Below are positions 39,518 to 59,828 of a stretch of 64,000 nucleotides of DNA, piece by piece. The stretch's first letter is position 1; every line of letters starts with the position of its first letter. Source of the stretch: a virus (lineage: Duplodnaviria; Heunggongvirae; Uroviricota; Caudoviricetes); the IMG/VR virus record IMGVR_UViG_3300027126_000001; one strand, 5' to 3'. Made by a program: the position numbers and the translations under genes. Below the pieces are notes generated by a model. It did not search any database, had not been told where the DNA came from, and saw nothing but the letters and a program-made list of their open reading frames with translations.

Positions 39518-39535
39518 GTTATAATTTATTTATGG

Positions 39536-39877
39536 TTATCCTTTAGCTGCTTGACTTAAAGCATTTATTATTATTTTATTAAGATATTCAATGTATATGA
39601 AGAAACCTATAACTGTCTTATCCTTTAATTCTCTGTCTCTCTCAACAGATAGCCCCAGTGAGGATAGTCCTTGATTTAACTTCTGTTGTAGTTCCATAGC
39701 GATGTCATCCTGTTGCTGTCTTGACATGCCTGTAAATGTAGTTGGAAGGAATTGTACCTTCACTCCTTTTTTATTCGGATCTTCATTAACATCAATCTTA
39801 AGAACAAGTTTATGTCCTTTGAAGTTTACTTTTGTTACTTCTGAAAGTATTTGTTTTATTTCGTTTAGTAAAGTCAT
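39536..39877 (-). CDS. Hypothetical protein
   Basis: 113 aa. Confidence 0.4.
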   Translation of the reverse strand: MTLLNEIKQILSEVTKVNFKGHKLVLKIDVNEDPNKKGVKVQFLPTTFTGMSRQQQDDIAMELQQKLNQGLSSLGLSVERDRELKDKTVIGFFIYIEYLNKIIINALSQAAKG

Positions 39878-39900
39878 ATTGGTTTTTTTATATAAATAGT

Positions 39901-41127
39901 TTAGTTCTTACATACTATTAGATTATTCTGATATTCTTCTAAAGAGTTAATAGTTACCTTAAATATATCTAGTTCAAACTCTCCTACCTCTCCACTCTCT
40001 TTTATTATTTCCGGCAATTGTTGAATAATATTAAAGGATTGTTGAGTGAATTGTTTTGCATCAAACTCTAATACAATATCATTTTCTAACTTAGGATCGT
40101 TATACTCTATAGTATATATTCTCTTTGATAAGTCAAATTTAGTATTTAACTGCTCCTTGTCAATATAATGTGAGGTAATAACCTGCATAGTATCGTCTAT
40201 GTATATCCTATCGCACCAAGGTTCTAATACTTCTAGTACCTGTAAATTAGAGTTTTTAATTACATAGGCTATGTTATATTTCGGCGGAACTTTTGGCATC
40301 ATAAGTTCATCATGTAGTACATTACTTCCCCATTTTCTCCACCACTCTCTGAATTTAATTGCTCTTAATGCTTTGTATTCTTCAGAGTCTTTTGGCTTAT
40401 ACCAAATTGTCCCATCTGGTAAAGGAATCTCAGCCTCTATCTCTAATCCATCTTTAAACCTACTTCCTCTACAAGTCATATGGTATGTCAAAGAATCTCT
40501 TGATTGTATTAAATCATATCCGGCTAAGTACATTCTATTGAAGATATCCGAGTCTTCTAATTCCATTGGAGCAAATAACTTGTCATGTCCTCCTATGGCT
40601 TGAAAGTCTTCTTTATTCATACACCATGGAGCAAAGATTCCATTTGTTGTTTGATCTTTGTATACAGTTTGACTCTCTTTTACAAATTGTAAGAAGTCTT
40701 CTTTCTTAAACTCTTCCGGCTCTGTTCCAAACAGTCTTACAAACTTCTCAGGCCCTGGAGGATGTAGAGGCGGTTCAACTCTAGTAGCTGCTACAACTGT
40801 TTTATCTTTTAAATGCTTAAGTAAGTTCTCTACATATCCTGGAGCTACAACCATATCGGCGTGAAGTATGCTGAATGCTTCTGTCTTAGATATCTCAACT
40901 CCTTTGTCATATAGAATGGTATGTCCTTGTCTTTCTGGACCTTCGTTTCTGTATTTAATTATGTTATCTCCTTTTAAGGATTGAATCCAATCCCAAGTAC
41001 CATCTGTTGATGCATCGTCTAATAAAACAATATCATGCTGAGTTCCGTAATGCTCTTGTATAGAACCAACTGCTTGTTTTAAGTATTTTAAATTATTCCT
41101 GGAAGGAATTACAAAACTTATTCTCAT
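39901..41127 (-). CDS. Glycosyltransferase family 2
   Basis: 408 aa. The N-terminus MRISFVIPSRNNLKYLKQAVGSIQ...VLLDDASTDGT is the GT-A / GT2 signature. Confidence 0.6.
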   Translation of the reverse strand: MRISFVIPSRNNLKYLKQAVGSIQEHYGTQHDIVLLDDASTDGTWDWIQSLKGDNIIKYRNEGPERQGHTILYDKGVEISKTEAFSILHADMVVAPGYVENLLKHLKDKTVVAATRVEPPLHPPGPEKFVRLFGTEPEEFKKEDFLQFVKESQTVYKDQTTNGIFAPWCMNKEDFQAIGGHDKLFAPMELEDSDIFNRMYLAGYDLIQSRDSLTYHMTCRGSRFKDGLEIEAEIPLPDGTIWYKPKDSEEYKALRAIKFREWWRKWGSNVLHDELMMPKVPPKYNIAYVIKNSNLQVLEVLEPWCDRIYIDDTMQVITSHYIDKEQLNTKFDLSKRIYTIEYNDPKLENDIVLEFDAKQFTQQSFNIIQQLPEIIKESGEVGEFELDIFKVTINSLEEYQNNLIVCKN

Positions 41128-41894
41128 TTTAATTTATTATATACATTTTCAATTCCTTGCTCTAATCCGATAAAAGCTACTGGAAGCTCGGTAAAGGTCC
41201 CTATATAATTCTCTCCTGGTAGAGGATCTTCTATGTTAATTGGTACTTTATTTATTGATAAATGGTTATTTATGTAATTAGCTATTTTGCTTAATGATAC
41301 TGTATCTTCATATATGCAGTCTACTTCTTTTAAAAGATCTTTACCCTCCATGTAATATACTATTGTAGAGATTAGATCAGGCATGTATATAAAGTCCATT
41401 AACCTATCTTGGTATACTACTATAGGTTCGTTGTTAAGAACCTTTCTAATACTGGATTTAATAAATCGAGTATCGTTTTCATTTTCATCAAACACTGCAA
41501 ATACTCTTAAGGTATAGAAATCATCATACTTGTGAACTAGCTTATTGATAATATTTTTGCTATGACCATATGGAGTGTCCGGCAAATACCTTTCTGCTCC
41601 CGAACCTATATTGATTAGCTTCTTAAAGTGATCTTTTTTTGATAGTAAGTTATAGAACATAACTAAATTCCAGAACGATATAGTCTCATCAGGATCTCTA
41701 GTATTAGCTACTCCTTTTATAGCAGTATGTATAACAACATCGAACTGCTTATTCTCAAAAAATTTATCTACAGAAGATTTATCAGTTAAGTCTAATTCAT
41801 CTTTCCCAGGAGCTATTATATGGTACCTACTCCATAAAGTATTAGTAATACTTTTAGCAATATACCCTTTTCCTCCTGTAACTAATATTCTCAT
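41124..41894 (-). CDS. NAD(P)-dependent sugar epimerase/reductase (RmlD-like SDR)
   Basis: Start moved to MRILVTGGKGYIAKSI (Rossmann GxxGxxG). TAA-T-ATG junction with the upstream gene. Confidence 0.5.
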   Translation of the reverse strand: MRILVTGGKGYIAKSITNTLWSRYHIIAPGKDELDLTDKSSVDKFFENKQFDVVIHTAIKGVANTRDPDETISFWNLVMFYNLLSKKDHFKKLINIGSGAERYLPDTPYGHSKNIINKLVHKYDDFYTLRVFAVFDENENDTRFIKSSIRKVLNNEPIVVYQDRLMDFIYMPDLISTIVYYMEGKDLLKEVDCIYEDTVSLSKIANYINNHLSINKVPINIEDPLPGENYIGTFTELPVAFIGLEQGIENVYNKLK

Positions 41895-41895
41895 A

Positions 41896-42432
41896 TTACT
41901 TCTCTTTACTAAAATCCCCAAATTCAACTAAGATAGTATTTATGCCATCTACTCTATTTAGAGCTTTTTTATAAGCAGGTACAATATCTTCAGGTTCAAA
42001 TAACTCTACAACTTCTATATTACGATTCATCTGCCTGAAAGCCTCCGAGAAGTTTCCTTTGTGTTGACATTGAGGGTCAACTGGTCTTTCGCTACCTACT
42101 GCTACTCGTATAATAACTTTAGGATCTAACTTACCATTAGACATTTCAATAAACTTATCCAGGTGATTAACTATTTGATCAACTCCCATAAGTAGAAAAT
42201 TCCACCTAGGATATGTTGATACAGGTATCATGCCTTCAATTGCCATTCCATTTGCTAGTCCTGTTTGAAAATATTCGGCCACTGGAAGTTCTAATTTCTT
42301 TTCAGCTGGTAGGTGAGACATGGTATCAAATAGTCCAGTTCCTTCGTACTCTACTGCTTGACCTATAAAGAACGTCTTAGGATGTTCTGCTAACAAGCTC
42401 ATTGCTTTCTGTAACTCTTCAAAGTATTTCAT
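41896..42432 (-). CDS. Transketolase-like TPP enzyme, C-terminal (pyrimidine-binding) subunit
   Basis: 178 aa with a Transket_pyr-like fold signature. Paired with the adjacent TPP-binding subunit. Confidence 0.4.
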   Translation of the reverse strand: MKYFEELQKAMSLLAEHPKTFFIGQAVEYEGTGLFDTMSHLPAEKKLELPVAEYFQTGLANGMAIEGMIPVSTYPRWNFLLMGVDQIVNHLDKFIEMSNGKLDPKVIIRVAVGSERPVDPQCQHKGNFSEAFRQMNRNIEVVELFEPEDIVPAYKKALNRVDGINTILVEFGDFSKEK

Positions 42433-42441
42433 ATCTCTATA

Positions 42442-43068
42442 TTAAAATTGAACTCTCATTCCTGCTCCGGCGTGAGGGTATTTGTTATTAGTATACTGAT
42501 AGTATATTAAATTCTTCTGTCTTAACAGTCCTCCTGTATACTCTGATTCAAGATAATACGGTCTTTCTCTCTTCCAGATATCTGGTGTAGGAGTGCACAC
42601 TGATTTTTTATTATCCTCTACAACAAAAGTTATTGGTAGGTCATGATTCAAACTGTACTTATAAGCTTCGTGAAATGCTCCTGTTTCGGCTGACATATCT
42701 CCTACCCAGCACCAAACTCTATTTGATTTTCCTTGAAGTTTAATTGCTAATGCAATACCTGCTGCTATGGAAGGAATACCTCCTACAATAGAGCTGCATA
42801 CAAATTTATACTCTGGAAGATTAACCACCATAGATTTCCCTTCTAGAATATTCTTTTTCATTACTTCAGCTGGAATTCCTTTTAATAATCCTTGGTAATG
42901 GTTTCTCCAGGTACAGCACACCCAGTCATTTTCTACATCGACATCTTTAAACAATTCTATCATTAAATCCTCATTACCCGAATAGAGGTGTATAGGTGCT
43001 TTAATTTCACCCCTATTGAATGAATCCCCAATTTCTGTTTCAAATTGGATTAATTGTTCTCTTACCAT
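42442..43068 (-). CDS. Transketolase-like TPP enzyme, N-terminal (TPP-binding) subunit
   Basis: 208 aa. VGDMSAETGAFHEAYKYSLNHDLPITFVVEDNK is a GDG-x(24-27)-N TPP-binding motif. Confidence 0.5.
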   Translation of the reverse strand: MVREQLIQFETEIGDSFNRGEIKAPIHLYSGNEDLMIELFKDVDVENDWVCCTWRNHYQGLLKGIPAEVMKKNILEGKSMVVNLPEYKFVCSSIVGGIPSIAAGIALAIKLQGKSNRVWCWVGDMSAETGAFHEAYKYSLNHDLPITFVVEDNKKSVCTPTPDIWKRERPYYLESEYTGGLLRQKNLIYYQYTNNKYPHAGAGMRVQF

Positions 43069-44018
43069 ATAAATTTTTCTCTATAATATTCTACAATATA
43101 CTTTAATTCAGTATCAAAATTAATTTGAGGCTTCCATCCTAATGCTCTCAACTTATCATCATTTAAAGCATATCGAACATCCTGCCCTTGTCTATCGTAT
43201 GAGAAGTCTACAAAGTCTTCTAACATATAATCTTGATCTTTATTGTACAATATAAGAACTTTTTTGATAGTATCCAAATTACTTTGCTCAAATCCTCCAC
43301 AGATATTAAAGATTTCATTCTGCACTCCTGATTCGATTATCTTCACAACAGCATTGGCTGTATCCTGAGCATGAAGCCAAGTTCTGATTGGAGTACCGTT
43401 ATTGTGTAAAGGAATCTTTTTGCCTAGCTTTAAATGCTTCAATGTTTTTGGAATTAGTTTTTCAGTATACTGCCCAATTCCGTAGTTGTTAGTTGGACGA
43501 ACAATTACATATGGAAGGTTGTAAGTCCTACCCCATGCTGTTACAAGCATATCTGCTGCAGCTTTTGTAGCTGAATATGGATTGGAAGGTTTAAGTAAAT
43601 CTGTTTCAACATGCTCTCCTTCTTCAATATCGCCATATACTTCATCTGTGCTAAAGTGGAGTAGTGTAGGTTTTGTTGAATGTTCTCCTCTATGATTCTT
43701 AATTAACTCTAATAGGTTATGAACTCCATTTACATTCGAAGATACAAACTCATCTGAATTAGCAATTGAATTACCTACGTGAGTCTCAGCTGCTGTATTG
43801 ATTATATAATCACAATCATATAGAAACTTCAAATCGTTAATATCACAATCAACAAAAGAGAAGTTACTGTATTCTTTAAATTCTTTTAATAGAGTTTTAT
43901 TGGCTGCATATGTTCCTTTATCAACTCCTTTAACATACCATCCTCTATCAAGGCATACTCTTGTTACATAGGATCCTATAAACCCTAGACAACCTGTTAC
44001 GTAAACTACTTTCGTCAT
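43062..44018 (-). CDS. NDP-sugar 4,6-dehydratase (RmlB-like extended SDR)
   Basis: 318 aa. VTGCLGFIGSYV Rossmann motif and YSATKAAADMLVTAW (YxxxK catalytic motif). Confidence 0.55.
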   Translation of the reverse strand: MTKVVYVTGCLGFIGSYVTRVCLDRGWYVKGVDKGTYAANKTLLKEFKEYSNFSFVDCDINDLKFLYDCDYIINTAAETHVGNSIANSDEFVSSNVNGVHNLLELIKNHRGEHSTKPTLLHFSTDEVYGDIEEGEHVETDLLKPSNPYSATKAAADMLVTAWGRTYNLPYVIVRPTNNYGIGQYTEKLIPKTLKHLKLGKKIPLHNNGTPIRTWLHAQDTANAVVKIIESGVQNEIFNICGGFEQSNLDTIKKVLILYNKDQDYMLEDFVDFSYDRQGQDVRYALNDDKLRALGWKPQINFDTELKYIVEYYREKFIW

Positions 44019-44019
44019 T

Positions 44020-44691
44020 TTATTCTTTATATAAGTGTTGTGAAAAATCTACTGCATCTACATAGTCCTGATACAGATTAAATACACTCTTGTACTTTGA
44101 ATCTACACCTGTGCCGATCCAAAATTCACATTGATGGCGTTCATCAAATATTAACGGCATCTCTTTTGGATGTTGTAATTTATTAATGTGGCTTGCTCTT
44201 GTCCACCAAAAGTTCTGTGAGAAATGACGTACTGGGTTATATATCAGTTCAGCACCTACTACATCGTATTCTTTTAAGAACTCTAAACTCTCCCTGTACC
44301 TAGTTACATTCCAGTGTAGTTGATATTTTCTGACATCTTCAATCCATTTATATTCTGGAACTTGTGTTGAATTGCTAGATCCTTTTGTATGTAGGTACAA
44401 TATATTATCTGTTGGATTATACTTACAGTGTTTAATTATTTTATCTAGTGTTGGAAATTCCCAAGCATGTACATTTGTTCCGTTGTAATTTATTTTACCC
44501 TTAGGTACATTAAACCTAATATTTGGATTCCCTAATAGTTCTAAATTAATTTCATCGACATCTGTATATATTTTTGAATCTAATATATGTTGAGCTATTT
44601 CATCAACTATTGCTTGACATCTTCCATGGTTATTGTATCCATTCTTGTCTATCAGTAGGTTTGCTGCATGAATAAATATAATGTTTCTCAT
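44020..44691 (-). CDS. Hypothetical protein of the glycan island
   Basis: 223 aa. Confidence 0.4.
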   Translation of the reverse strand: MRNIIFIHAANLLIDKNGYNNHGRCQAIVDEIAQHILDSKIYTDVDEINLELLGNPNIRFNVPKGKINYNGTNVHAWEFPTLDKIIKHCKYNPTDNILYLHTKGSSNSTQVPEYKWIEDVRKYQLHWNVTRYRESLEFLKEYDVVGAELIYNPVRHFSQNFWWTRASHINKLQHPKEMPLIFDERHQCEFWIGTGVDSKYKSVFNLYQDYVDAVDFSQHLYKE

Positions 44692-45500
44692 ATTGCAGTC
44701 CAGGTATTTGGATAGTAATTTTTATTTATAAATTGACTTTCTTTGTCAGAAGGTCCAATATAGTCTTCCGGGCAAACAACTATTTTATTTGGATTGTTGT
44801 TTAAATAAGCACCCCACCAACTAAAGCTAGAATTTGCAATTATGTTATGATCACATAAAGACATCATACACATATCTACATAATTTGAATTACCTTCACT
44901 AAAGTGTATATTATCCCCTACTAGTACTTCTTTACACCATTCTATATCGTCTGAGAATACTAATAGTTTAAAGTATGTAAATTTTTCTAAGAATATATTT
45001 ATAGCTTCATTATAATAATCTAGTGTAAGATTTAGTGAAGAAACTTCTAAATAATCTCCTCTTCTAAAATGTACAGAAACTATAGGGTAGTTCTCACCTT
45101 CTTTTACCTCTTCTACCTTACTAATAGCTTCAGCTAATATACTCTCCTTAAATTTAAAAGCATCCTTAATAAGATTTTCATACTTATCCCAGTAGTGGTA
45201 TAGGTGGAACCATCCCTGTATATCCCAATTAGTATTTGGATCTAGATTAAAAACTTCTTTATCACATATTTTCTCTTTAAGAGTATATATAGAGTGAGTT
45301 CCTTCTGAAATACTTTTGATTGGATGTTTCAAATCAAACGCTTCAAATAACCTTACTCCTCTAAACAGTTCCATATATTCTTTGAAGAATACAATATCAC
45401 TACCTAAGTGTTTTGAGAGTGCCAGCAAGCCAGCGTACTGGCTCATCTGCGAACCAAACTGAGGCCCTATTGAGAGGTTTGTTTTTGTTATATAGTTCAT
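44688..45500 (-). CDS. Alpha-1,2-fucosyltransferase (GT11)
   Basis: Start at the internal MNYITK. GSQMSQYA (compare GNQMFQYA), HFRRGDY, and DHNIIANSSFSWWGAYLNNNPNKIVVCP (compare H. pylori FutC [27 protein letters not shown]). Confidence 0.7.
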   Translation of the reverse strand: MNYITKTNLSIGPQFGSQMSQYAGLLALSKHLGSDIVFFKEYMELFRGVRLFEAFDLKHPIKSISEGTHSIYTLKEKICDKEVFNLDPNTNWDIQGWFHLYHYWDKYENLIKDAFKFKESILAEAISKVEEVKEGENYPIVSVHFRRGDYLEVSSLNLTLDYYNEAINIFLEKFTYFKLLVFSDDIEWCKEVLVGDNIHFSEGNSNYVDMCMMSLCDHNIIANSSFSWWGAYLNNNPNKIVVCPEDYIGPSDKESQFINKNYYPNTWTAI

Positions 45501-45540
45501 TATTATTTTATCTTTTATTAATATACGAAATACTCTTCTA

Positions 45541-46386: not shown

Positions 46387-46391
46387 ATAAT

Positions 46392-52035: not shown

Positions 52036-52036
52036 A

Positions 52037-53347: not shown

Positions 53348-53387
53348 ATAACTGATTTTATTTGTTTTATTAATATATGAAATTATC

Positions 53388-54380
53388 TTATTGCTGGCAA
53401 CTATTTTTATAATAATTCTCCCAGTATTCAATCATTTCATCCAACATACTTTCAAAAGTATATTCATGCTTCCATCCTGTTGTTTCAACTAACTTAGAGC
53501 AATCTCCTTTCAAGTCATGTAATTCTTCTGGGCGTAAGAATTTCTCATCCTGCTTAACATACTGCTTCCAGTCTAGTTCTAACTTACCAAATACATATTC
53601 ACATAACTCTTGTACTGAGTGGGATACTCCTGTTGAGCATACAAAGTCATCCGGCTTGTCTTGTTGAAGTATCAACCACATTGCATAAACATAATCCTTA
53701 GCATGACCCCAGTCCCTTGTAGCATCCAAGTTTCCTAGCTTTAATTCATTTGATAATCCTAACTTAATCTTAACCGCCTCTTTGCAGACTTTATTTGTTA
53801 CAAAGTTTGTACCTCTACGAGGTGATTCATGATTAAATAATATACCGTTTGATACAAACATATTGTATGAGTTACGGTAATTTCTACTAATGTTATACGC
53901 AAATACTTTAGCACATCCGTAAGGTGATACTGGATTGAGTGGTGTAGTTTCTCTTTGAAATCTATCCTCATCAATACTATTTCCAAACATTTCTGAAGAT
54001 GATGCTTGGTATATTTTTGTTTTAGGGGATACAAGCCTTACTGCTTCAAGGATATTTAATGTACCTATTCCTGTTGTATTGGCTGTATATAGGGGTTGGT
54101 CGAAGGATATTCTAACATGCGATTGTGCTGCTAAATTATATAATTCATCTGGCTGTACCTTTGCAACAACCCTTACCAGTGATGCTAGGTCTGTAAGGTC
54201 AGCGTACTCTAGCTTGATACTATTATATACTGCATCTAATCTTGCTGTTTGATTTTCAGCTACAGAATTCCTCTTTACTGTTCCCCATACTTCATATCCC
54301 TTTTCTAGGAGTAATTCAGCTAAGTATGATCCGTCTTGTCCGTTTATTCCTGTTATAAGTGCTACTTTATTTTCTCGCAT
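53388..54380 (-). CDS. gmd: GDP-mannose 4,6-dehydratase
   Basis: [33 protein letters not shown] is nearly identical to the E. coli Gmd N-terminus ([29 protein letters not shown]). Confidence 0.8.
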   Translation of the reverse strand: [330 protein letters not shown]

Positions 54381-55275
54381 TATCGTAATTTTCTATAAAC
54401 CATTTAACTGTTTCTTTTATCCCTTGTTCAATTGAAGTGTATTTAAAGTCTGGAAGATATCTTTTTACCTTTTCATTTGAAGAAGGCTTTCTAAATTGTC
54501 CATCTGGCTTATCTGTTTCAAAAATAATATTTCCTTTATAATTAAACTCCTCAGCTATTAGCCCTACCAAGTTTTTAATACTTATTTCCTCTGAGGTTGT
54601 AAATATGATTGGTTCTTCTTCGTCGTAATTCTCAACAGCCCATTTAGCTAATTCAGCTACATCTTTAGAGTAAATAAATTCTCTTAAAGGCTTCCCCGTA
54701 CCCCATACTTTGAAGTCTGTTTTATTTTGTATTGCTAAATACATTTTATGTAGAAGCATCGGCACTACATGTCCATGTTCTAAAGAGAAGTTATCATTTG
54801 GTCCGTATATGTTTGTTGGAATTACAGAAGTATATTTCAATCCATACTGCTCTCTATAGGCTCTAATTTGTATATCTGCTAGACGTTTAGCATAGGCATA
54901 AGGATAGTTTGAACTGTGAGGAAACCCATTATGTACTTGATCTTCTGTTAAAGGATAGTTTACTTTGTCTGGAAATACGCAGGTGGATAGAAATGATACT
55001 AGATTTGTAACCCCAGCCAGTCTAGCTGATTCAATTACATTTGTATTGATCATTACATTATCGTACAGGTATTCTCCTTTGTACTTCATATTTCCCCCCA
55101 AACCTCCTACTTTGCCGGCACAGTGAATAACGTGAGTTGGTTTATGCCATTCAAAAGCTCTTAAAGTTTCTTCTGGGCTTGCTAGGTTATATTCTCTTCC
55201 TATTTTAATATCAGCATCTATAGCTGAACCTACTAGGCCTTTTCCTCCTGTTATTAGTAATTTAGAGTGTATCAT
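54367..55275 (-). CDS. fcl: GDP-L-fucose synthase (GDP-4-keto-6-deoxymannose 3,5-epimerase/4-reductase)
   Basis: Start at the internal MIHSKLLITGGKGLVGSAI. PTNIYGPNDNFSLEHGHVVPMLL, WGTGKPLREFIYSKD and KPDGQFRK align with E. coli Fcl ([46 protein letters not shown]). Confidence 0.75.
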   Translation of the reverse strand: MIHSKLLITGGKGLVGSAIDADIKIGREYNLASPEETLRAFEWHKPTHVIHCAGKVGGLGGNMKYKGEYLYDNVMINTNVIESARLAGVTNLVSFLSTCVFPDKVNYPLTEDQVHNGFPHSSNYPYAYAKRLADIQIRAYREQYGLKYTSVIPTNIYGPNDNFSLEHGHVVPMLLHKMYLAIQNKTDFKVWGTGKPLREFIYSKDVAELAKWAVENYDEEEPIIFTTSEEISIKNLVGLIAEEFNYKGNIIFETDKPDGQFRKPSSNEKVKRYLPDFKYTSIEQGIKETVKWFIENYDNARK

Positions 55276-55882
55276 AGTAACTATTCTGTCTTTCTTGTCT
55301 GTCGATTGTCTTTGGATGATATAAAGCCCATTCCTCTTCTGGTGGAAGCATTCCATGTATCTTAAATCCTTCTAGTACTTCATGTACTTTGTTTACCCAT
55401 CTTATATGAGGAGCATTCTTATAAATTCTCATTTGCCAATCTGCCCAGTTGACCCATCCTTTTTCATTTACATGCCATCCCCACTTCTGAATATGCTCTT
55501 GTGTTAAACCCTCTACAGTATTTACTCTAGGGATTCTAAGCATATCGACATCATTGGTCTTTAGCATTTCAGGAAGGTTTTGTATCAAATTAATATGAGG
55601 AATCTCATCAGCATCTATCTGAAAGATATAATCTCCTGAACATACTTTGAAGAATTTATTCTTCCAATCAGCGAAGTGTCCCTTAAATTCAGATTCGATT
55701 AAAAGTATTTGATTTATCGAAGCACATGCTTTTAAAACTTCTTGTAGCTCTTGAGACATTTTAGGACTATCTGCTAGTACTACTATCTCATCTTCTGTAC
55801 GTTTGTTGGAAAGGAGGAAGTTGACTAGTCTTTTCACTTCCTCCAATTCATTACAAACTGTTATTGCATAACTTATTTTCAT
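55262..55882 (-). CDS. Small GT2-like glycosyltransferase
   Basis: 206 aa; N-terminus MKISYAITVCNELEEV. Confidence 0.45.
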   Translation of the reverse strand: MKISYAITVCNELEEVKRLVNFLLSNKRTEDEIVVLADSPKMSQELQEVLKACASINQILLIESEFKGHFADWKNKFFKVCSGDYIFQIDADEIPHINLIQNLPEMLKTNDVDMLRIPRVNTVEGLTQEHIQKWGWHVNEKGWVNWADWQMRIYKNAPHIRWVNKVHEVLEGFKIHGMLPPEEEWALYHPKTIDRQERQNSYYDTL

Positions 55883-55899
55883 ACTTAAATATATGAAAT

Positions 55900-56358
55900 T
55901 TATTCTTTATCTGCAACTTCTACATCAAAAAATCCTATTACTTCTAAGGCATCCATAAAATCTCTTTGACCAAATATTTGAAGGTTTCCCATATCCATCT
56001 TATGTGTTTGCCCTTTAGGGAAGTTTGCTTTTTCTTCCTCTACAATTTCGATAGCTTTTACTGCAGACCACATCCAATTATCTTTTGATGTACCGTCTAA
56101 GAATACCATTCCTTTACCTGGGATAGTGATTGTGGCTGGAAGCCATACCTTACCTGAATCATCTGTGTATAAGAGATCTTTGTATAGTTCCGGTGATGCT
56201 TCTAAGGTTTTGTTTACCAAATCTCCTCCCTCAACCATTAAGGTTGAAGTTGAATATCCGCAACCAAAGCAAAAGCTTGTTGTTACTTCTTCTGTTACTG
56301 CTTGTTCATAGCAAGCATTTCCTCCACAGTGTGGACAGTCTACCATTTTTTCTTCCAT
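55900..56358 (-). CDS. Zinc-ribbon protein
   Basis: 152 aa. CPHCGG...CFGCGY. Confidence 0.4.
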   Translation of the reverse strand: MEEKMVDCPHCGGNACYEQAVTEEVTTSFCFGCGYSTSTLMVEGGDLVNKTLEASPELYKDLLYTDDSGKVWLPATITIPGKGMVFLDGTSKDNWMWSAVKAIEIVEEEKANFPKGQTHKMDMGNLQIFGQRDFMDALEVIGFFDVEVADKE

Positions 56359-56900
56359 TATACTTTTTTAGTTATATACCAGGTATCATCATCTTCAGAG
56401 TACCCTTTATTAAATTCAAACTCACTACTATTTAATTTTCTAAACATGTTTTGAAAATAACTTAATCTATCATCTTCAAGACCATCTCCATCATAAGGTT
56501 CAAATTTTATACCCTCACTATCAGTATTGTTTAAAAAAGGAATGATTTCACTATTCATTACTTTTTGTAAAAATATTGCTTTAGGTAATCGATTTGGATC
56601 ATTATCATCCCACTTAAACTGCTCTTCAGGAGTAGGTGCATTTAGATTTCCAAATTTCAATTCCCAAAAATTATCACTTGGATCATATACTAACCTAACT
56701 TCAAAAGGAGAACTATCATTAGTTCCTCTAAATTCTTTTGGTTTGAATATTATAATATTACCTTGGTTTAATTTTCTTACCCCCCATTGAGATATTTCAG
56801 TAAGGATGTATTGTTTTGTAGCTTCTTTCTTTTCTGTTAAGTTTGTATACTTACCTAATGACTGATAAACTTCAGTTGCCAGTATTGTTAAGGCTCTCAT
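56358..56900 (-). CDS. Hypothetical protein
   Basis: 180 aa; ATGA coupling. Confidence 0.4.
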   Translation of the reverse strand: MRALTILATEVYQSLGKYTNLTEKKEATKQYILTEISQWGVRKLNQGNIIIFKPKEFRGTNDSSPFEVRLVYDPSDNFWELKFGNLNAPTPEEQFKWDDNDPNRLPKAIFLQKVMNSEIIPFLNNTDSEGIKFEPYDGDGLEDDRLSYFQNMFRKLNSSEFEFNKGYSEDDDTWYITKKV

Positions 56901-58196
56901 TTATTCTATTTTCTTTAATTTTGGTAATTCTATTTTCTTAAGCTGTGGTAGCTTTAACTGAACCTGTTTAGGAAACTCAGGGACATATTGTGTTAGAAGG
57001 TTATCTAGCGTTTCTGTCATCTTTTCGTATGAAAAATGTGTTCTACTCTTGTGTCCTTGTCTCTTAGCAAGAGGTTTCCACTTTTCATAGTTGTCGTAGA
57101 TGTCCTTAAATGCCTGACCTACCTGCACTGGATCTGCTGAGAACCATTGACTGTCGGTTAATATCATATTAGGAACTGCCGCTGAAGGATGTACATTTGT
57201 GAGATTACCTCCTATGTATTTTACAAATTCTTTATCAAGAAAATCTACATGACCTGACCAAGCTGATGCTATAATTGGTTTGTTTACTAGACTAAACTCT
57301 AATAGAGGTCTTCCAAACCCTTCTCCTTTTGTTAGAGAAACCATTGCTTTTACTTTACCGTAGTTGTATAGTTCGTTAATCTCTGTATCAGTCATGTCAC
57401 CATGGAGTAGGTATACGTTAGGTAAATCACCTTTAACTGTTTTCCTTATTGCATCTACCCTGTCTAGCAGTTCTTCCCTATCCATAATAGATGTTCCTGA
57501 TCCTGCTTGTACTTTCAGTAGTAGTGCCGGCCTTTTTCCTTTAGGTTTATTTTTAAATGTCTCCAGGAAAGTCTTAATGGTATATCCTATATTCTTCCTA
57601 TCCTCTCCCATGATTCCAGGTAACCAATGTCCTACTGCTAAGAAGCAAAACATTTCATCTATCTCATCAAATTTTAACTTTACAGGAAATGCAAGTGGGG
57701 AGTATTTTGTAATATCAGCTCCTTCAAACAACACCTCTACTTTTGACTTTAATACAAGTTCTCCCGTTACTTGACCTGTATTACTGTCCTGCATATTAAA
57801 TTTTGAATCTTCAAATACTTTTTTTGCATGCTCAGAAGATACTAATACCAAGTCCATGTTATTACATCCCTGTATCCAGGTAGGATCACATACTGTAGTC
57901 TCAATTCCGGCTGTTACTCCTATATTATATTTACCTACTTTTTGAAATTCATTCGGTACTGTGATCTGAATCCATATATCAGGCTGTTGTGTTAGTTGTG
58001 GTATGATTCTAGAGACTAAGGATTCGTTATTATGGTCTTTTAAGTATCCGAATCTAGTTCCTCCCCATCTCTGTGATAATATTTTTACATCATACTTATC
58101 TGTATCGATAATTGATTGTACAAAGTCTCTTGCTCTTGCTCCATATCCTGAGTAAGTATCAACTGGACAGCTTACTACTAATGTAGGTTTACTCAT
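56901..58196 (-). CDS. Hypothetical protein (possible GT-B glycosyltransferase)
   Basis: 431 aa. Confidence 0.4.
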   Translation of the reverse strand: MSKPTLVVSCPVDTYSGYGARARDFVQSIIDTDKYDVKILSQRWGGTRFGYLKDHNNESLVSRIIPQLTQQPDIWIQITVPNEFQKVGKYNIGVTAGIETTVCDPTWIQGCNNMDLVLVSSEHAKKVFEDSKFNMQDSNTGQVTGELVLKSKVEVLFEGADITKYSPLAFPVKLKFDEIDEMFCFLAVGHWLPGIMGEDRKNIGYTIKTFLETFKNKPKGKRPALLLKVQAGSGTSIMDREELLDRVDAIRKTVKGDLPNVYLLHGDMTDTEINELYNYGKVKAMVSLTKGEGFGRPLLEFSLVNKPIIASAWSGHVDFLDKEFVKYIGGNLTNVHPSAAVPNMILTDSQWFSADPVQVGQAFKDIYDNYEKWKPLAKRQGHKSRTHFSYEKMTETLDNLLTQYVPEFPKQVQLKLPQLKKIELPKLKKIE

Positions 58197-58198
58197 AA

Positions 58199-59641
58199 CT
58201 AGTATATTAATTTATGTGTTATACGTTTTTTAGGTCTGTCTGTAATTTTATGTAATTCGAATCTTTCTCTTGGAACAAACTTCTCAAATGATTCATCCAT
58301 TGCATCAATTACATTCTCACACATCTGTCTTGCTGACATTCCTGATTCATCAGATATTACCCATTCTCTTGCTTTCAATCCTTTAGCATCTCTTTCTTCT
58401 TTTGACATCTCATATGCCTTTAAAATAGCTTTTGCTACATCTTCTGGTGCACATCTATCGTCAAAAATATAAGGAGTTGGAACTGAACCTACCAGTGAAA
58501 TGTTTGAAGGGAACACCGGGATGGCCCATTCACCACACTCCCTATATGTTCCTCTATGGTTAGAAGGAAAGTCTGAACTGAAGTCAATCCACTTACCATT
58601 CTCATCCGTAAATCTCATTTGATCCTGCATACCTCCAGTTACATTTGCAATGATCATTCTACCTGCCATCATAGTTTCAGTTAGAGATAGTCCCCATCCT
58701 TCGTTTGAAGTAATAAGTAATCCTACATCAGCTACGTTGTAAAGCAAATTCATTTGTGGAGTATCTAGTTTATCTTGAGAGAAGAATACATTTATATTTT
58801 CATCACATAAAGCTTCTCTTACCGCATAAAGATCTGTTCCATTTTCATCTACAGCTTGAGTATGCATTACAAGTGCACATCTCTTTGCTCTCTCTTCTCC
58901 GATTAAATCACAGAATAATTTGTATGAAAGGATTACATCTCCTGGAGATTTTCTTCTAATGTTTCTTGAATTAAACAGAACTACAAAGTCGATTTGTTTT
59001 TCTCCAAACATATTGTTCTTAAACTCTTGTAATAGTTCAAAATTTTCATGACCTTCTCTAATAGGAAAGAAGTGTTTATCATTTATTCCATGAGGAACGT
59101 ACTTGATAATTTTACCCTTAGTAGACTCTCCTAAAACTATTTCATTAATATTTTTAGTTTGTTTTGAGATTGCCATTAATAAGTCACATGATTCGTAGTA
59201 TGCTTTATTGTATAACGGTGCTGGAAGATCATCCCAAATGTTTAGATACATTAGTGGGATTTCATTTCTAATTTCTCTCTCTATCTCAAACAACCAAGTC
59301 CAATATCTTGGATCTGTGAATATAAAAATTGCATCAGGCTTTTCCTGCTGCATAAGTGAACGTATAAGCATTGCATCTCCATATCCATTGCTAGGCAATA
59401 CTCTTACCCAAGCATCTTCAATATCTGCAAACTTATTTACCTCCGAGGATATATCAAGTCCTTTTCCTGCATCAGGATGGTTAATGGCTGCTCCTACATT
59501 AAGCCAATTGAAATGGTGGGCTGTTCCTACAACAATCTCTCTTGCCATAGTTGCGATACCGGAATGCATCCTAATATCATCGCATAACAGAAGAATCTTC
59601 TTTCGATCTTCTCTCTTTACATAACGAAATTTTTCTTTCAT
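58199..59641 (-). CDS. Glycosyltransferase family 4 (GT-B, group 1)
   Basis: 480 aa. EGWGLSLTETMMAGRMIIANVTGG resembles the GT4 E-x7-E region. Confidence 0.55.
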   Translation of the reverse strand: MKEKFRYVKREDRKKILLLCDDIRMHSGIATMAREIVVGTAHHFNWLNVGAAINHPDAGKGLDISSEVNKFADIEDAWVRVLPSNGYGDAMLIRSLMQQEKPDAIFIFTDPRYWTWLFEIEREIRNEIPLMYLNIWDDLPAPLYNKAYYESCDLLMAISKQTKNINEIVLGESTKGKIIKYVPHGINDKHFFPIREGHENFELLQEFKNNMFGEKQIDFVVLFNSRNIRRKSPGDVILSYKLFCDLIGEERAKRCALVMHTQAVDENGTDLYAVREALCDENINVFFSQDKLDTPQMNLLYNVADVGLLITSNEGWGLSLTETMMAGRMIIANVTGGMQDQMRFTDENGKWIDFSSDFPSNHRGTYRECGEWAIPVFPSNISLVGSVPTPYIFDDRCAPEDVAKAILKAYEMSKEERDAKGLKAREWVISDESGMSARQMCENVIDAMDESFEKFVPRERFELHKITDRPKKRITHKLIY

Positions 59642-59645
59642 GTAA

Positions 59646-59828
59646 CTACTTTAATTTTAAATTTGTTTGGTTGTGTAACTTTTGCTTAAAGCTCTCCTCT
59701 GTAAGGTATAAGTAAATTGCTCTATCTACAAGTTTCTGTAAGGAAAATTTATACCTCACACATTCTTCTTTAAATTCTTGAAACAATTCTTGTTCTACCT
59801 TTACGCTGGTTAATTTTTTTGTGTCCAT
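59646..59828 (-). CDS. Small hypothetical protein
   Basis: 60 aa. Confidence 0.3.
   Translation of the reverse strand: MDTKKLTSVKVEQELFQEFKEECVRYKFSLQKLVDRAIYLYLTEESFKQKLHNQTNLKLK

Follow-up and report, generated by a model that had tools for sequence, protein, structure and literature searches.

Organization of the island

The window, the whole 64,000-nucleotide stretch of viral DNA that was analysed, contains 21 tightly packed open reading frames between positions 39901 and 59641, all on the minus strand. At least 17 of these 21 genes carry sugar-nucleotide or glycosyltransferase (GT) signatures, with up to 12 GT domains spread across 10 genes; no sugar-related signature was found in 44020–44691, 55900–56358 or 56358–56900. 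The island is about 20 kb long and has a flat GC content (0.31–0.35), with a small-gene region on one side, the lysis cassette on the other, and about 20 kb separating it from the structural genes. A preliminary description assigned one-third of the segment to it, which fits the window (31%) but not the genome of roughly 160–167 kb, of which it is about 12%. The genes are listed below, beginning with the flanking gene.

59874–60809, minus strand: PD-(D/E)XK (Cas4-like) nuclease, a flanking, non-glycan marker of the locus boundary (PF12705 in a precomputed annotation; PADLOC Cas4, 1e-7)
58199–59641, minus strand: core GT with GT-B fold (GT4-like), 480 aa, first gene of the island and hallmark of the lineage (phrog_2170 glycosyltransferase, 2.2e-14)
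56901–58196, minus strand: core GT4-like glycosyltransferase, 431 aa (PF00534, 1.1e-4, and PF13692 (below cut-off); phrog_2170, 4e-15)
56358–56900, minus strand: ORF of 180 aa, a sporadic insertion within the core block; no family match
55900–56358, minus strand: core protein, 152 aa, with an N-terminal four-cysteine zinc ribbon (CPHCGG...CFGCGY; weak Lar-type zinc-ribbon match, 0.0032)
55262–55882, minus strand: core GT2 glycosyltransferase, 206 aa, ending the conserved block (PF00535, 2.5e-12)
54367–55275, minus strand: GDP-L-fucose synthase (Fcl/GMER type), 302 aa (top PDB match human 4e5y, 2.9e-94, full length)
53388–54380, minus strand: GDP-mannose 4,6-dehydratase (Gmd), 330 aa (PF16363, 4.4e-119, 398 bits)
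52037–53347, minus strand: E1/RfbH-type PMP-dependent NDP-4-keto-6-deoxyhexose 3-dehydrase, 436 aa from ATG (NF011936 RfbH, 2e-138, 461.7 bits, cut-off 423)
51064–52035, minus strand: probable GT-B (GT4-like) glycosyltransferase, 323 aa, constant partner of the GT2-GT10 fusion (weak WsaF_C and GT4 PDB matches, E 0.09–0.4)
49436–51091, minus strand: bifunctional protein, 551 aa, with N-terminal GT2 (GT-A; PF00535, 3.7e-18) and C-terminal GT10 (fucosyltransferase family; PF00852, 8.2e-11)
48636–49436, minus strand: third fucosyltransferase-fold enzyme (NodZ/FUT8/POFUT superfamily), 266 aa
47675–48649, minus strand: protein of 324 aa with a conserved WDDD motif; no family match
46392–47675, minus strand: tandem DUF5672 protein, 427 aa, with two GT-A-fold glycosyltransferase-like domains
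45541–46386, minus strand: SDR-family NDP-sugar epimerase/reductase, 281 aa (PF01370, 2.5e-32; GGTGFIG and YSITK motifs)
44688–45500, minus strand: GT11-family fucosyltransferase, 270 aa from ATG at 45500 (PF01531, 1.8e-27, 96.8 bits, cut-off 23.9)
44020–44691, minus strand: DUF8361 protein, 223 aa (PF27674 in the precomputed annotation of an identical Logan contig)
43062–44018, minus strand: RmlB-like NDP-hexose 4,6-dehydratase, 318 aa (TIGR01181, 6.7e-91, 304.7 bits, below the 365 cut-off; PF16363, 1e-56)
42442–43068, minus strand: TPP-binding subunit, pyruvate dehydrogenase E1-alpha-like, 208 aa, shortened (PF00676, 9e-16; TIGR03182, 7.1e-22)
41896–42432, minus strand: pyrimidine-binding subunit, E1-beta-like, 178 aa, shortened (PF02779, 2.5e-6; NF006667, 3.1e-13)
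41124–41894, minus strand: SDR reductase/epimerase with an RmlD/Fcl-like N-terminus, likely start ATG at 41894 (PF01370, 2.8e-21; PF04321, 3.2e-14; VTGGKGYIA and YGHSK motifs)
39901–41127, minus strand: terminal GT2 glycosyltransferase, 408 aa, C-terminal half uncharacterised, a semi-conserved island end (PF00535, 1.9e-18)

Profile searches bear out the three GT2 genes, the GT4-like gene, the three SDRs and the split E1-alpha/beta-like TPP enzyme named in the preliminary description, and add the RmlB-like dehydratase; a GT-B gene is also present. The island contains no membrane protein gene, every product being predicted soluble, and no gene for an initiating phosphoglycosyltransferase, flippase, polymerase, ligase or exporter.

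Sugar-nucleotide pathways

Two genes provide a GDP-L-fucose branch. Gmd scores 399.8 bits against TIGR01472, just below the cut-off of 415, has the GxxGxxG, SSE and YxxxK motifs, and matches GMDs in the PDB at 1e-91 to 2.6e-99. The catalytic LSTC, YAYAK and GHV motifs of Fcl align with human 4e5y, and Fcl reaches 227 bits against NF047922, under the cut-off of 500; it is nearer to the eukaryote-type enzyme than to the E. coli enzyme. The near-identity to the E. coli enzymes first ascribed to both proteins is not seen, identity to the E. coli K-12 proteins being 46% for Gmd and 34% for Fcl. Assignment of the pair is secure at the family level, and together they are predicted to convert host GDP-mannose to GDP-L-fucose. 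The pathway earlier called complete is so only from GDP-mannose onward, with no ManA/B/C or any nucleotidyltransferase gene in the island, and since there is no nucleotidyltransferase both sugar pathways would depend on host precursors.

The second set of enzymes centers on 52037–53347, for which the RfbH/DegT-like assignment of the preliminary description is upheld by a score above the NF011936 cut-off. It matches CDP-6-deoxy-L-threo-D-glycero-4-hexulose-3-dehydrase (3bcx) at 5.8e-103 and ColD at 2.2e-50, and in the alignment the Schiff-base Lys is replaced by His (YPAHHITMGEGG) and the Cys cluster is aligned. The ORF reaches 53431 when started from TTG. An E1-type dehydrase normally requires a reductase partner (E3), and no E3-type reductase was found in the island. 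The RmlB-like dehydratase has a counterpart with at least 62% identity in about 23 of 28 loci with a full-length GT2-GT10 fusion, and the TPP subunits fall well short of true E1 subunits in length. Similar E1-alpha/beta-like pairs (Plm8/9, AviB1/2) extend NDP-4-keto-deoxysugars at C4 with a chain of two carbons that comes from pyruvate (PMC4802897). Judging from the gene set, the RmlB-like dehydratase, E1-type 3-dehydrase and TPP pair probably make a branched 3,6-dideoxyhexose; with the SDR reductases they would take host NDP-glucose to a two-carbon-branched 3,6-dideoxy-4-keto sugar (yersiniose- or paulomycose-like).

Glycosyltransferases of the cassette

Pfam and NCBIfam profile searches place 44688–45500 in GT11, as had been proposed; the motifs HFRRGDY and NSSFSWWGAYL (VSVHFRRGDY and IIANSSFSWWGAYL) are present, and the protein is 31–35% identical to cyanophage GT11 or 'alpha-1,2-fucosyltransferase' gene products. 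The C-terminus of 49436–51091 likewise belongs to GT10 (PF00852, 42.3 bits against a cut-off of 23.9), with the GT2 domain N-terminal to it. This GT10 half contains YKFSIAIENG...YFTEKI...TIPIYKG and matches plant FucTA (9s6a, 1.5e-9) and H. pylori FucT (2nzw/5zoi, ~1e-7) with IEN and FTEK aligned; E457, N458, T466, E467 and K468 are invariant across 26 family members. The fusion has 717 metagenomic homologues (54–90% identity among the 120 matches listed), and is abundant on long viral contigs, but its matches across 185,579 bacterial species genomes reach at most 43% identity. These are long-resident phage-lineage genes and not recent acquisitions from hosts.

The two proteins proposed as possible GT-B enzymes fared differently. 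The product of 51064–52035 has weak GT4/GT-B support and is 24% identical to gp173 of Flavobacterium phage immuto, annotated 'GDP-mannose-dependent mannosyltransferase' (tblastn, 1.65e-10); it occurs in 24 of 30 GT10-bearing loci versus 10 of 77 others. Searches of Pfam, NCBIfam, PHROGs and PADLOC, and a profile search of the PDB, gave no match to 47675–48649; K92, W93, D94 and D96 are invariant in six orthologues, and the protein is possibly a GT-A enzyme. A direct search of the Pfam copy gave no match for 44020–44691. The preliminary description overlooked the GT-A fold of DUF5672, the NodZ/FUT8-fold enzyme at 48636–49436, and the second deoxysugar pathway.

The conserved core and residence in a phage genome

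Core block genes are present in 58–83 of 83 loci, and cassette genes are patchy. A four-gene core is common to at least 600 IMG/VR contigs of related aquatic phages. Its GT-B gene (58199–59641) has at least 600 IMG/VR relatives at 59–100% identity, and is 85% identical to immuto gp181 and 43% identical to its counterpart in Microcystis phage Mel-JY01; a profile of 16 orthologues has chlorovirus NY-2A GT B736L as its top match (3oy2, 4.8e-11), the closest solved structure. The GT4-like gene (76 of 83 loci), the zinc-ribbon gene (65 of 83) and the core GT2 gene (58 of 83) are 80%, 78% and 66% identical to immuto gp180, gp179 and gp178, respectively. The insertion at 56358–56900, with no match in Pfam, NCBIfam, PHROG or PADLOC, is present in five of 83 loci and missing from immuto. 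The terminal GT2 is 59% identical to immuto gp169 and 86% identical to its counterpart in related locus L087. The flanking nuclease is kept in 79 of 83 loci, with the same synteny in L084, and in relatives including Mel-JY01 a nuclease of this type lies upstream of the GT core, either adjoining it or with one or two small genes between.

The island belongs to the genome of an Immutovirus-like Flavobacterium myovirus; it is neither host DNA nor an assembly chimera. Collinearity with immuto (Immutovirus), at 78–82% nucleotide identity, extends over the tail/baseplate region and both flanks of the island; the matching locus in immuto holds another glycan cassette. The gene content does resemble bacterial polysaccharide loci, as expected if host capsule or O-antigen DNA had been misassembled onto a phage or lay beside a prophage, an origin that the preliminary description itself raised. 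That explanation is effectively refuted: phage genes lie on both sides in the order seen in immuto, an isolated virulent phage; an identical 21.7-kb stretch is found on contigs of two independent sequencing runs; a 167-kb IMG/VR viral contig is 94.6–99.1% identical over the island and both edges; the GC content shows no break, and neither an integrase nor a supported tRNA gene marks the edges; and the architecture is common to hundreds of viral contigs. The sole ARAGORN call, a tRNA-like sequence at 24865–24942, is doubtful and unsupported by Rfam.

Variation among related loci

From 55 loci, 368 cassette ORFs fall into 193 protein clusters, 125 of them singletons; the main families are SDRs, GT2s, methyltransferases, DegT enzymes, acetyltransferases and nucleotidyltransferases, and no initiating transferase, flippase or ligase is among the top families of the approximately 55 cassettes sampled. 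Compared with the minimal cassette of L087, the window has two clean insertions, 53359–55257 (Gmd and Fcl, 1.9 kb) and 44031–49443. L085, L086 and L087 all have the GT2-GT10 fusion without Gmd, Fcl or GT11, and Gmd is not in the sequenced range of 18 of 30 GT10-bearing relatives, which makes the donor sugar of the GT10 domain uncertain. GT11 is present in 10 of 22 Gmd-positive relatives versus 7 of 85 others, with weaker enrichment of GT10 (12 of 22 versus 18 of 85); the loci are related and often incomplete, and these counts are indicative only. The fusion tracks the RmlB-like dehydratase and the GT-B at 51064 more tightly than Gmd and Fcl, and it belongs to an older cassette with these two genes, the RfbH-type dehydrase and the TPP pair.

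These patterns bear on the model in the preliminary description, in which GT11 (alpha-1,2) and GT10 (alpha-1,3) both use island GDP-fucose to form a difucosylated epitope of the Lewis-antigen type known from Helicobacter pylori. Both families are there with intact GDP-fucose-binding motifs, Gmd and Fcl are encoded, and the enrichments above point the same way. Shared use of GDP-fucose is unbacked by the comparative data, however, given that the fusion commonly occurs without the fucose genes; moreover, no LacNAc-forming galactosyl or GlcNAc transferase is identifiable in the island, and the GT10 domain is only 31–38% identical to Helicobacter enzymes, over approximately 155–210 residues. Neither linkage nor acceptor is fixed by family membership: a colitosyltransferase is classified in GT11, and protein O-fucosyltransferases are among the members of GT10. 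We consider a Lewis-type product unlikely.

Putative roles of the glycan

The explanation that best accommodates these observations, to which we give an even chance, is a phage-resident island of two layers with fucose and branched-sugar pathways and putative virion glycosylation. The lineage core (the GT-B at 58199, GT4-like at 56901, zinc-ribbon protein at 55900 and GT2 at 55262) forms one layer, with the terminal GT2 at 39901 closing the island and a swappable cassette (41124–55275) in between. Fucose would be transferred by GT11 and the NodZ/FUT8-fold enzyme, with the GT10 domain as a possible third transferase, and the GTs together may build a complex hetero-oligosaccharide. With only soluble products and no initiation or export genes, assembly would be cytoplasmic and stepwise, on an acceptor that is not among the island's products.

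That acceptor would be conserved across the lineage and would most likely be a phage structural protein, giving virion glycosylation as in chloroviruses and mycobacteriophages, a tentative assignment that we favor at somewhat less than even. A phage-side or universal acceptor is favored by retention of the core block and its synteny in Mel-JY01, whose host (from the record only) is in another phylum, and also by the chlorovirus likeness of the core GT-B and the phage-resident GT2-GT10 family; a universal lipid-linked primer (e.g. Und-PP-GlcNAc) could explain cross-host conservation of the core equally well. Mycobacteriophage GTs are described beside capsid genes, unlike the island with its distance from structural genes. 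Nearly as likely as virion glycosylation, and a real possibility, is that the soluble GTs work on the inner side of the host membrane and modify intermediates of O-antigen, capsule or O-glycan carried on undecaprenyl, with host flippases and ligases exporting the product. This is the standard reading of analogous cyanomyovirus and pelagimyophage clusters (PMC7029224, PMC12801897, PMC9602691); a bacterial O-antigen locus stripped of Wzx/Wzy would have an indistinguishable gene content, the missing acceptor and export functions must pre-exist, and hypervariability suits an arms race at the cell surface. On the other hand, rebuilding an outer-membrane glycan takes time that a virulent phage hardly has, conservation of the core GTs (43–100% identity) extends across phages with recorded hosts of different phyla and envelope glycans, the GT families are of the phage lineage and not copies of host genes, and initiating transferases, flippases and ligases are lacking from the main cassette families. 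Virion and host-surface purposes are both live options that sequence alone cannot separate. Glycosylation of phage DNA bases to evade restriction is far less probable. All the enzymes are cytoplasmic, and phage GTs attach diverse glycans to DNA (Pyle et al. 2024, as cited in PMC12619734). By LC-UV-MS/MS, however, immuto DNA has canonical dA, dC and dT with all G as 7-formamidomethyl-7-deazaguanine, and no glycosylated nucleoside is reported (PMC10516641); immuto has the same GT core. No hydroxymethyl-pyrimidine pathway was seen within the window. We also know of no DNA glycosylation system that approaches twelve GT domains and two deoxysugar pathways.

The preliminary description holds in that the phage carries a multi-enzyme glycan locus that includes members of GT11 and GT10 and a GDP-L-fucose branch of its own. 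The novelty of the locus is modest, lower than first implied, because cyanophages already have fucose toolkits: S-SRM01 also combines Gmd and Fcl with GT10, GT11 and a NodZ-like enzyme (PMC9602691, PMC12801897), as do the cyanomyoviruses S-SCSM1 and S-SCSM2R. Among deposited phage records Gmd is found in 84, GT11 in 103 and GT10 domains in 21, and hypervariable GT islands are already described in pelagimyophages (PMC7029224). The island represents one form of a glycan locus that varies greatly among hundreds of related aquatic phages and in which the cassette would diversify exposed outer sugars in the manner of an O-antigen locus. If these sugars remodel the host surface, they may block superinfection, keep progeny off debris, or alter grazing.

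Gene content of the island

Every ORF of the window is on the minus strand, and the island (39901–59641) holds 21 genes that are close-set and in many cases overlapping. Most gene assignments of the preliminary description were upheld by Pfam and NCBIfam searches. We refer to the GT-B gene at 58199, the GT4-like gene at 56901, the gene at 55900 for a 152-aa Zn-ribbon protein and the GT2 gene at 55262 as the core, to the GT2 gene at 39901 as the terminal GT2, and to the genes in between (41124–55275) as the cassette.

Island genes with family or structure matches (coordinates, strand, assignment, match)
39901–41127, minus, GT2, PF00535 1.9e-18
41124–41927, minus, SDR, PF01370 2.8e-21
41896–42432, minus, split TPP enzyme, pyruvate-dehydrogenase E1 beta-like part, PF02779 2.5e-6
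42442–43068, minus, split TPP enzyme, pyruvate-dehydrogenase E1 alpha-like part, PF00676 9e-16
43062–44018, minus, RmlB-like 4,6-dehydratase, TIGR01181 304.7 bits, under the cut-off of 365
44688–45500, minus, GT11, PF01531 1.8e-27
45541–46386, minus, SDR, PF01370 2.5e-32
46392–47675, minus, tandem DUF5672 protein, PF18922 6.5e-36
49436–51091, minus, GT2-GT10 fusion, PF00852 8.2e-11
52037–53431, minus, RfbH, NF011936 461.7 bits, over the cut-off of 423
53388–54380, minus, Gmd, PF16363 4.4e-119
54367–55275, minus, Fcl, PDB 4e5y 2.9e-94
55262–55882, minus, GT2, PF00535 2.5e-12
56901–58196, minus, GT4-like, PF00534 1.1e-4, under the cut-off
58199–59641, minus, GT-B, phrog_2170 2.2e-14

Up to 12 glycosyltransferase (GT) domains are distributed across 10 island genes. 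PHROGs placed two core GTs in a generic 'glycosyltransferase' family only and gave no match for eight other proteins scanned, and PDB profile searches returned marginal GT4 matches only for 51064–52035 and no match for 47675–48649. When the core proteins and those of unknown family were searched with PADLOC, the sole matches were Cas4-like, to the flanking nuclease, and no defence system was found apart from these. An Rfam gathering search of the whole window gave no match. A sigma-70 scan of the island was uninformative, with 67 promoter-like sites against 90.5 in shuffled sequences and Bacteroidota promoters not being modelled, and a terminator scan of the island found none on the minus strand.

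A 180-aa ORF without a family match (56358–56900, minus strand) splits the core between the GT4-like gene and the gene for the 152-aa protein. It is present in about 5 of 83 related loci at 93–100% identity, which suggests a small insertion of recent spread.

The island resides in a phage genome

The preliminary description had raised the possibility that the island is host chromosomal DNA or the product of a chimeric assembly, and we examined this through collinearity with a cultured relative, independent contigs and GC content. The relative, immuto (Immutovirus), is a 160-kb virulent myovirus isolated from the Baltic Sea; its tail/baseplate region and both island flanks are collinear with the window at 78–82% nucleotide identity, and window positions 39001–62836 match immuto 43717–60876 at 82%. 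The annotated immuto glycan cluster (gp169–gp181) occupies exactly the same position, between small early-type genes and the genes for a nuclease, holin and endolysin. By tblastn, the parts shared with immuto are both flanks of the island (83–91% identical), the terminal GT2 (59%), the core GT2 (66%), the 152-aa protein (78%), the GT4-like protein (80%) and GT-B (85%); in place of 41124–55356, immuto carries aminotransferases, a PglB-like protein, a mannosyltransferase and a methyltransferase. An identical 21.7-kb sequence is found on contigs from two independent sequencing runs, and a 167-kb IMG/VR contig (L093; IMGVR_UViG_3300046003_006038) matches at 99.1% over 38866–46424 and at 94.6% over 47003–61097. 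GC content is flat across the island (0.31–0.35). Because of the immuto collinearity, the independent contigs including L093 and the flat GC, both an assembly chimera and host DNA are ruled out.

Protein identity between L093 and the window drops to 80–88% for the core GT2, the GT2-GT10 fusion and the DUF5672 protein, a sign of recombination or quicker divergence within the island. Recent uptake of the GT2-GT10 fusion from a sequenced host is not supported, as a search of 185,579 bacterial species genomes gave no match above 43% identity.

Several other features of the window are recorded here. Just beyond the endolysin gene, a 387-aa ORF with a TTG start (62832–63995, minus strand) encodes two PAS domains (PF08447 2.8e-23, PF13426 1.6e-22) and hydrophobic C-terminal segments and has no counterpart at the immuto locus; a phage membrane PAS sensor beside lysis genes would be unusual. 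The stretch that separates the island from the structural genes contains genes for SPFH/Band-7 (31571–32407), DUF932 (34232–35056) and UPF0227 (esterase-like; 37055–37657) proteins, all on the minus strand, the DUF932 gene being common to the window and immuto. The region 20000–28000 has the lowest GC of the window (0.27–0.32) and a strongly negative GC skew, and its ORFs are small (about 90–130 aa) except for one of 262 aa (23987–24775) that has no Pfam match. ARAGORN called a tRNA-like element with a four-base anticodon (gagg) at 24865–24942 on the minus strand, at which the Rfam gathering search found no tRNA; the call may be false, or the element may be a tRNA that is degenerate or of the frameshift type.

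A conserved core and a swappable cassette

The core GT-B has at least 600 IMG/VR relatives, and the 80 that were kept are 59–100% identical to it. In nearly all loci the gene order is PD-(D/E)XK nuclease, GT-B, GT4-like, 152-aa protein and GT2, with variable genes thereafter. Up to 7.6 kb immediately downstream of the core was taken from each of 55 loci; clustered at a minimum of 30% identity, the 368 ORFs so obtained gave 193 clusters, 125 of them singletons. A Pfam census of 148 representatives was dominated by SDR epimerases/dehydratases, GT2 and methyltransferase families including FkbM and TylF, and also contained DegT, hexapeptide acetyltransferases, nucleotidyl- and cytidylyltransferases and DUF5672. 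We conclude that the locus is O-antigen-like and hypervariable, with the conserved GT core as its anchor. Core and synteny are kept at 43% identity in Microcystis phage Mel-JY01, on which a literature search found no paper, and remoter core relatives are present in a huge phage and in Rhodothermus phage RM378. Among solved structures, the one that best matches the core GT-B profile is that of chlorovirus NY-2A glycosyltransferase B736L (4.8e-11).

The PD-(D/E)XK (Cas4-like) nuclease gene (59874–60809) lies upstream of the GT core, adjoining it or one to two small genes apart, and this linkage is lineage-wide (related loci L001, L084, L085 and L086, Mel-JY01 included).

Cassette composition can be followed through the GT2-GT10 fusion, a large phage-lineage family. 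Its metagenomic homologues number 717, and most of the 120 listed are full-length; these 120 are 54–90% identical and lie on contigs of up to 182 kb. The loci compared for co-occurrence are kin to one another and often incomplete, so the counts are indicative only: a homologue of the GT-B at 51064 is present in 24 of 30 GT10-bearing loci against 10 of 77 others, and the RmlB-like dehydratase in 15 of 30 against 5 of 77 (and in about 23 of 28 loci with a full-length fusion). The other usual partners are an RfbH or DegT gene and the TPP pair. One related locus (L087), whose fusion is 91% identical, is a minimal cassette with the order core, RfbH, GT-B, GT2-GT10, 4,6-dehydratase, TPP-alpha, TPP-beta, SDR and terminal GT2. 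Relative to it the window has two clean insertions, 53359–55257 with Gmd and Fcl, and 44031–49443 with DUF8361, GT11, SDR, tandem DUF5672, a 324-aa unknown and a NodZ-like gene; the window's cassette is a mosaic.

The GDP-fucose pathway

A complete GDP-L-fucose pathway had been proposed, with Gmd and Fcl near-identical to the E. coli enzymes. The pathway is complete only from GDP-mannose onward: ManA/B/C and a nucleotidyltransferase were found neither in the island nor among ten flanking ORFs scanned, and the identities to the E. coli K-12 proteins are 46% for Gmd and 34% for Fcl. Gmd matches PF16363 over its full length (398 bits), its best PDB matches are all GMDs (1e-91 to 2.6e-99), and it scores marginally under the equivalog cut-off of TIGR01472 (399.8 bits; cut-off 415). 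Aligned with E. coli Gmd, the segments GINGQDGSY, ASSSEMFG and YGCAK of its translation supply the NADP-binding glycine motif and the SDR catalytic S/T, E and YxxxK. Fcl is nearer the eukaryote type (319 bits to human 4e5y versus 171 to E. coli 1bws) and does not reach equivalog level with the bacterial model NF047922 (227 bits versus a cut-off of 500). Residues 5–302 align with human GDP-L-fucose synthase, and LSTC, YAYAK and GHV are conserved; from the literature on the E. coli and human enzymes we take these to hold the catalytic Ser/Cys, YxxxK and His.

Subject to the same reservation about related and incomplete loci, GT11 occurs in 10 of 22 Gmd-positive relatives against 7 of 85 others and the NodZ-like gene in 8 of 22 against 5 of 85, and because both are enriched in this way the island's GDP-fucose would most plausibly be used by GT11 and the NodZ-fold enzyme. 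A route from Gmd through a ColD-like and a ColC-like enzyme to GDP-colitose is conceivable for some relatives, in which Gmd and an RfbH-type gene are present without Fcl. It is less likely here, where the dehydrase is E1-type (348 bits to E1 versus 175 to ColD) with His and Fe-S features and the reductase is far closer to true GDP-fucose synthases.

Enzymes of the fucosyltransferase families and DUF5672

Both family assignments of the preliminary description held. The product of 44688–45500 matches the GT11 family PF01531 over profile positions 33–277 of 298 (E 1.8e-27; 96.8 bits versus a cut-off of 23.9), and in a search for the alpha-2/alpha-6 fucosyltransferase superfamily motifs HxRRGD(Y) and (N)SSFSWW its translation was found to contain VSVHFRRGDY and IIANSSFSWWGAYL. 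Family membership does not set donor, linkage or acceptor, and alpha-1,2 fucose transfer is predicted at most.

Residues 393–517 at the C-terminus of the GT2-GT10 fusion match PF00852 (E 8.2e-11; 42.3 bits versus 23.9), the GT10 motifs first described are present in the translation, and the PDB matches of the domain are exclusively GT10 enzymes (9s6a, 5zoi/2nzw and FUT9 8d0o). The IEN and FTEK segments of this half (FEN and VTEK in 5zoi) lie within its alignment to plant FucTA and H. pylori FucT, and E457, N458, T466, E467 and K468 are invariant across 26 family members; in the structure paper on H. pylori FucT, GDP-fucose is reportedly bound by the Asn of FEN and the Glu-Lys of TEK. In a search for the N-terminal acceptor domain that holds the catalytic base of GT10 enzymes, residues ~230–390 matched neither PF17039 nor the N-domains of solved GT10 enzymes; they are conserved in the phage family. 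The proposal that the locus's own GDP-fucose feeds GT10 fares poorly, since Gmd is in range in only 12 of the 30 GT10-bearing relatives, leaving 18 without it within the ±10 kb fetched, and three loci (L085, L086 and L087) have the fusion without Gmd, Fcl or GT11. The GT10 domain may draw on GDP-fucose made by the phage or by the host, or on a different 6-deoxy sugar.

The product of 48636–49436 gave weak NodZ matches by sequence. An AlphaFold2 model built from 45 homologues (pLDDT 92.5) points to a third fucosyltransferase-fold enzyme; H142 and R144 of HCRGTD are invariant, and the nearest viral model is the cyanophage S-SRM01 'fucosyltransferase'. The DUF5672 model (pLDDT 91.6) predicts a GT-A fold, and in homologues the domain is joined to GT2, methyltransferase, radical-SAM and GT9 domains; a single-sequence PDB search with the DUF5672 protein gave nothing meaningful, and a literature search on DUF5672 nothing relevant.

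A probable second sugar pathway

The RfbH-like protein exceeds the NF011936 equivalog cut-off (461.7 bits; cut-off 423) and matches 3bcx at 5.8e-103 versus 2.2e-50 for ColD. It has His for the PLP-binding Lys, with YPAHHITMGEGG as in wild-type E1 (3bcx), the H220K mutant (3bb8) reading AKH. The cysteines of EDCCDALG and CyC...C align with E1 and, by its literature, are presumably the [2Fe-2S] cluster ligands. On these features the protein is an E1-type 3-dehydrase. Pfam and NCBIfam searches of the island and its surroundings found neither a flavodoxin-reductase-like E3, the reductase partner of E1, nor a cytidylyltransferase for the supply of CDP-glucose.

PDH-E1 alpha/beta-like pairs place a pyruvate-derived two-carbon branch onto C4 of NDP-4-keto-deoxysugars, as with Plm8/9 of paulomycose and AviB1/2 of avilamycin, a different TPP enzyme acting in yersiniose (PMC4802897). 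Taken together, the E1-type enzyme, RmlB-like dehydratase, TPP pair and SDRs would probably form a second pathway, with a branched 3,6-dideoxyhexose as its product; the island encodes neither an E3 reductase nor a nucleotidyltransferase.

Comparison with known systems

Phage 'LPS-like' gene clusters have been known in marine cyanophages since 2005, and we know of no glycosylation target demonstrated for them so far. The cyanomyoviruses with 'LPS / cell-wall synthesis and modification' clusters (P-SSM2, S-SCSM1, S-SCSM2R, S-SRM01, S-SM2 and S-T4) resemble the present phage in being large virulent aquatic myoviruses with Gmd, Fcl, GT11 'alpha-1,2-fucosyltransferase', GT10 and NodZ-like genes (PMC9602691, PMC12801897), along with many further GTs and NDP-sugar epimerases. 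Besides five other GTs, S-SCSM1 has Gmd, Fcl, an alpha-1,2-FucT, a NodZ FucT and a POFUT (PMC9602691), and S-SCSM2R has 13 GTs including one GT10 and two GT11 (PMC12801897). In S-SRM01, Gmd, Fcl, GT10, GT11 and the NodZ-like enzyme each have a counterpart. They belong, however, to another phage lineage and host phylum, with protein identities of only 31–52%, whereas our island is a contiguous 20-kb block with a four-gene conserved GT core and a replaceable centre, has its GT10 domain joined to GT2, and adds an E1-type 3-dehydrase and a PDH-E1-like branching module.

The 'host recognition cluster' of pelagimyophages and cyanomyophages is likewise a hypervariable, non-syntenic island of GT and O-chain-type sugar genes within otherwise syntenic aquatic myophage genomes, and has been read as a means to modify the surface or to avoid coinfection (Zaragoza-Solas et al. 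2020, PMC7029224). Those islands lie inside the structural module among tail-fibre genes, with GT8 dominant (PMC7029224), while this one lies between lysis/replication genes and the small-gene block, is free of fibre genes and has a conserved GT core as its anchor.

Chloroviruses and giant viruses (PBCV-1 GMD/GMER and A64R; NY-2A B736L) share virus-encoded GDP-fucose synthesis and soluble cytoplasmic GTs, although their hosts are eukaryotic, the likeness is at fold or family level only and glycosylation of virion proteins is hypothetical for the phage lineage. Chlorovirus GTs decorate the major capsid protein without the host ER/Golgi. Mycobacteriophages are to our knowledge the sole established case of phage virion glycosylation, and their system reportedly comprises two GTs beside structural genes and no sugar-nucleotide pathways; our island, in contrast, has 10 GT genes and two pathways away from structural genes. 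The mycobacteriophage GTs act in the cytoplasm, where they attach glycans to subunits of the capsid and tail tube (Freeman et al. 2023, cited in PMC12619734).

Bacterial O-antigen and capsule loci have the same conserved ends and variable centre, and these loci and the yersiniose, paulomycose and eurekanate pathways use the same RmlB, RfbH/E1 and SDR reductase families; the thiamine-dependent two-carbon branch from pyruvate also recurs in branched deoxysugar pathways (PMC4802897), its function in the island being predicted. Unlike these loci, the island lacks Wzx, Wzy, Wzz, an initiating transferase, a nucleotidyltransferase and an E3 reductase, its TPP subunits are about 60% of normal length, and its genomic host is a virus. 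H. pylori FutA/FutB (GT10) and FutC (GT11) share family and GDP-fucose-binding motifs with the island enzymes, but the Helicobacter enzymes are 31–38% identical over part of the GT10 domain and the island GT10 is fused to GT2. Of the interpretation first offered, the phage glycan locus stands and the Lewis-type link is improbable: the comparative context ties the island GT10 to another sugar pathway, and LacNAc acceptors are without support.

A phage-borne fucose toolkit is not new, because it is already evident in the cyanomyovirus reports and in deposited phage records (Gmd in 84, GT11 in 103, the GT10 domain in 21 and RfbH-type genes in 8, mostly of cyanomyoviruses); GT-rich hypervariable islands are known from pelagimyophages as well. 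What is new is its Immutovirus-like lineage (phages of Flavobacteriia), the layout of conserved core and swappable cassette and its scale, the GT2-GT10 fusion family, the E1 and PDH-E1-like branching module in a phage, and the predicted folds of DUF5672 and the NodZ-like protein.

The acceptor

None of the island proteins has predicted transmembrane segments, and there is no flippase, polymerase, initiating phosphoglycosyltransferase, ligase or exporter among them. Because membrane, export and initiating genes are missing, the glycan must be assembled in the cytoplasm, onto an acceptor already present. DNA is unlikely to be that acceptor, because immuto has the same core and yet its DNA contains only dA, dC, dT and, in place of G, 7-formamidomethyl-7-deazaguanine, no glycosylated nucleoside being reported (PMC10516641).

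We tentatively consider a phage structural protein, a reading that we regard as quite possible though short of probable. It is favoured by conservation of the core across phages whose recorded hosts span different phyla, by the standing of the GT families as phage-lineage genes, by the fold-level links to chlorovirus GTs and by the mycobacteriophage precedent (cited in PMC12619734). The island is, however, about 20 kb away from the structural genes, and a universal lipid-linked primer would account for core conservation equally well. The alternative acceptor is a host lipid-linked envelope glycan; host remodelling of this kind is the usual interpretation of the cyanophage and pelagiphage clusters (PMC7029224, PMC12801897), and we hold it only slightly less likely here than a structural protein. 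The fuller model for a structural-protein acceptor, in which a core common to hundreds of Immutovirus-like aquatic myophages primes the protein and the hypervariable, recombining cassette adds a strain-specific outer virion glycan, in this case of fucose and a branched 3,6-dideoxyhexose, is speculative and on balance unlikely.

This lineage is a tractable test case, as the cultured virulent phage immuto (on Flavobacterium sp. LMO8) shares the conserved GT core, the cassette can be separated from that core, and clean insertions provide natural variants with and without Gmd/Fcl and with and without the GT11 block. If the host envelope is the target, the island would be an unusually elaborate superinfection-exclusion device for a lytic phage; if the virion is, particles would carry strain-specific glycan coats, affecting adsorption, grazing, stickiness and defence evasion in aquatic systems. 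Either way the island is a source of enzymes with predicted activities, namely GT2-GT10 fusions, a compact NodZ-fold fucosyltransferase, DUF5672 GT-A domains and a miniature PDH-E1-like sugar-branching pair. Should the model of a core-primed, cassette-extended virion glycan be true, it would amount to serotypes of phage particles, comparable to those that O-antigens give bacteria, and to the first complex, self-supplied virion glycosylation among phages of Gram-negative bacteria.
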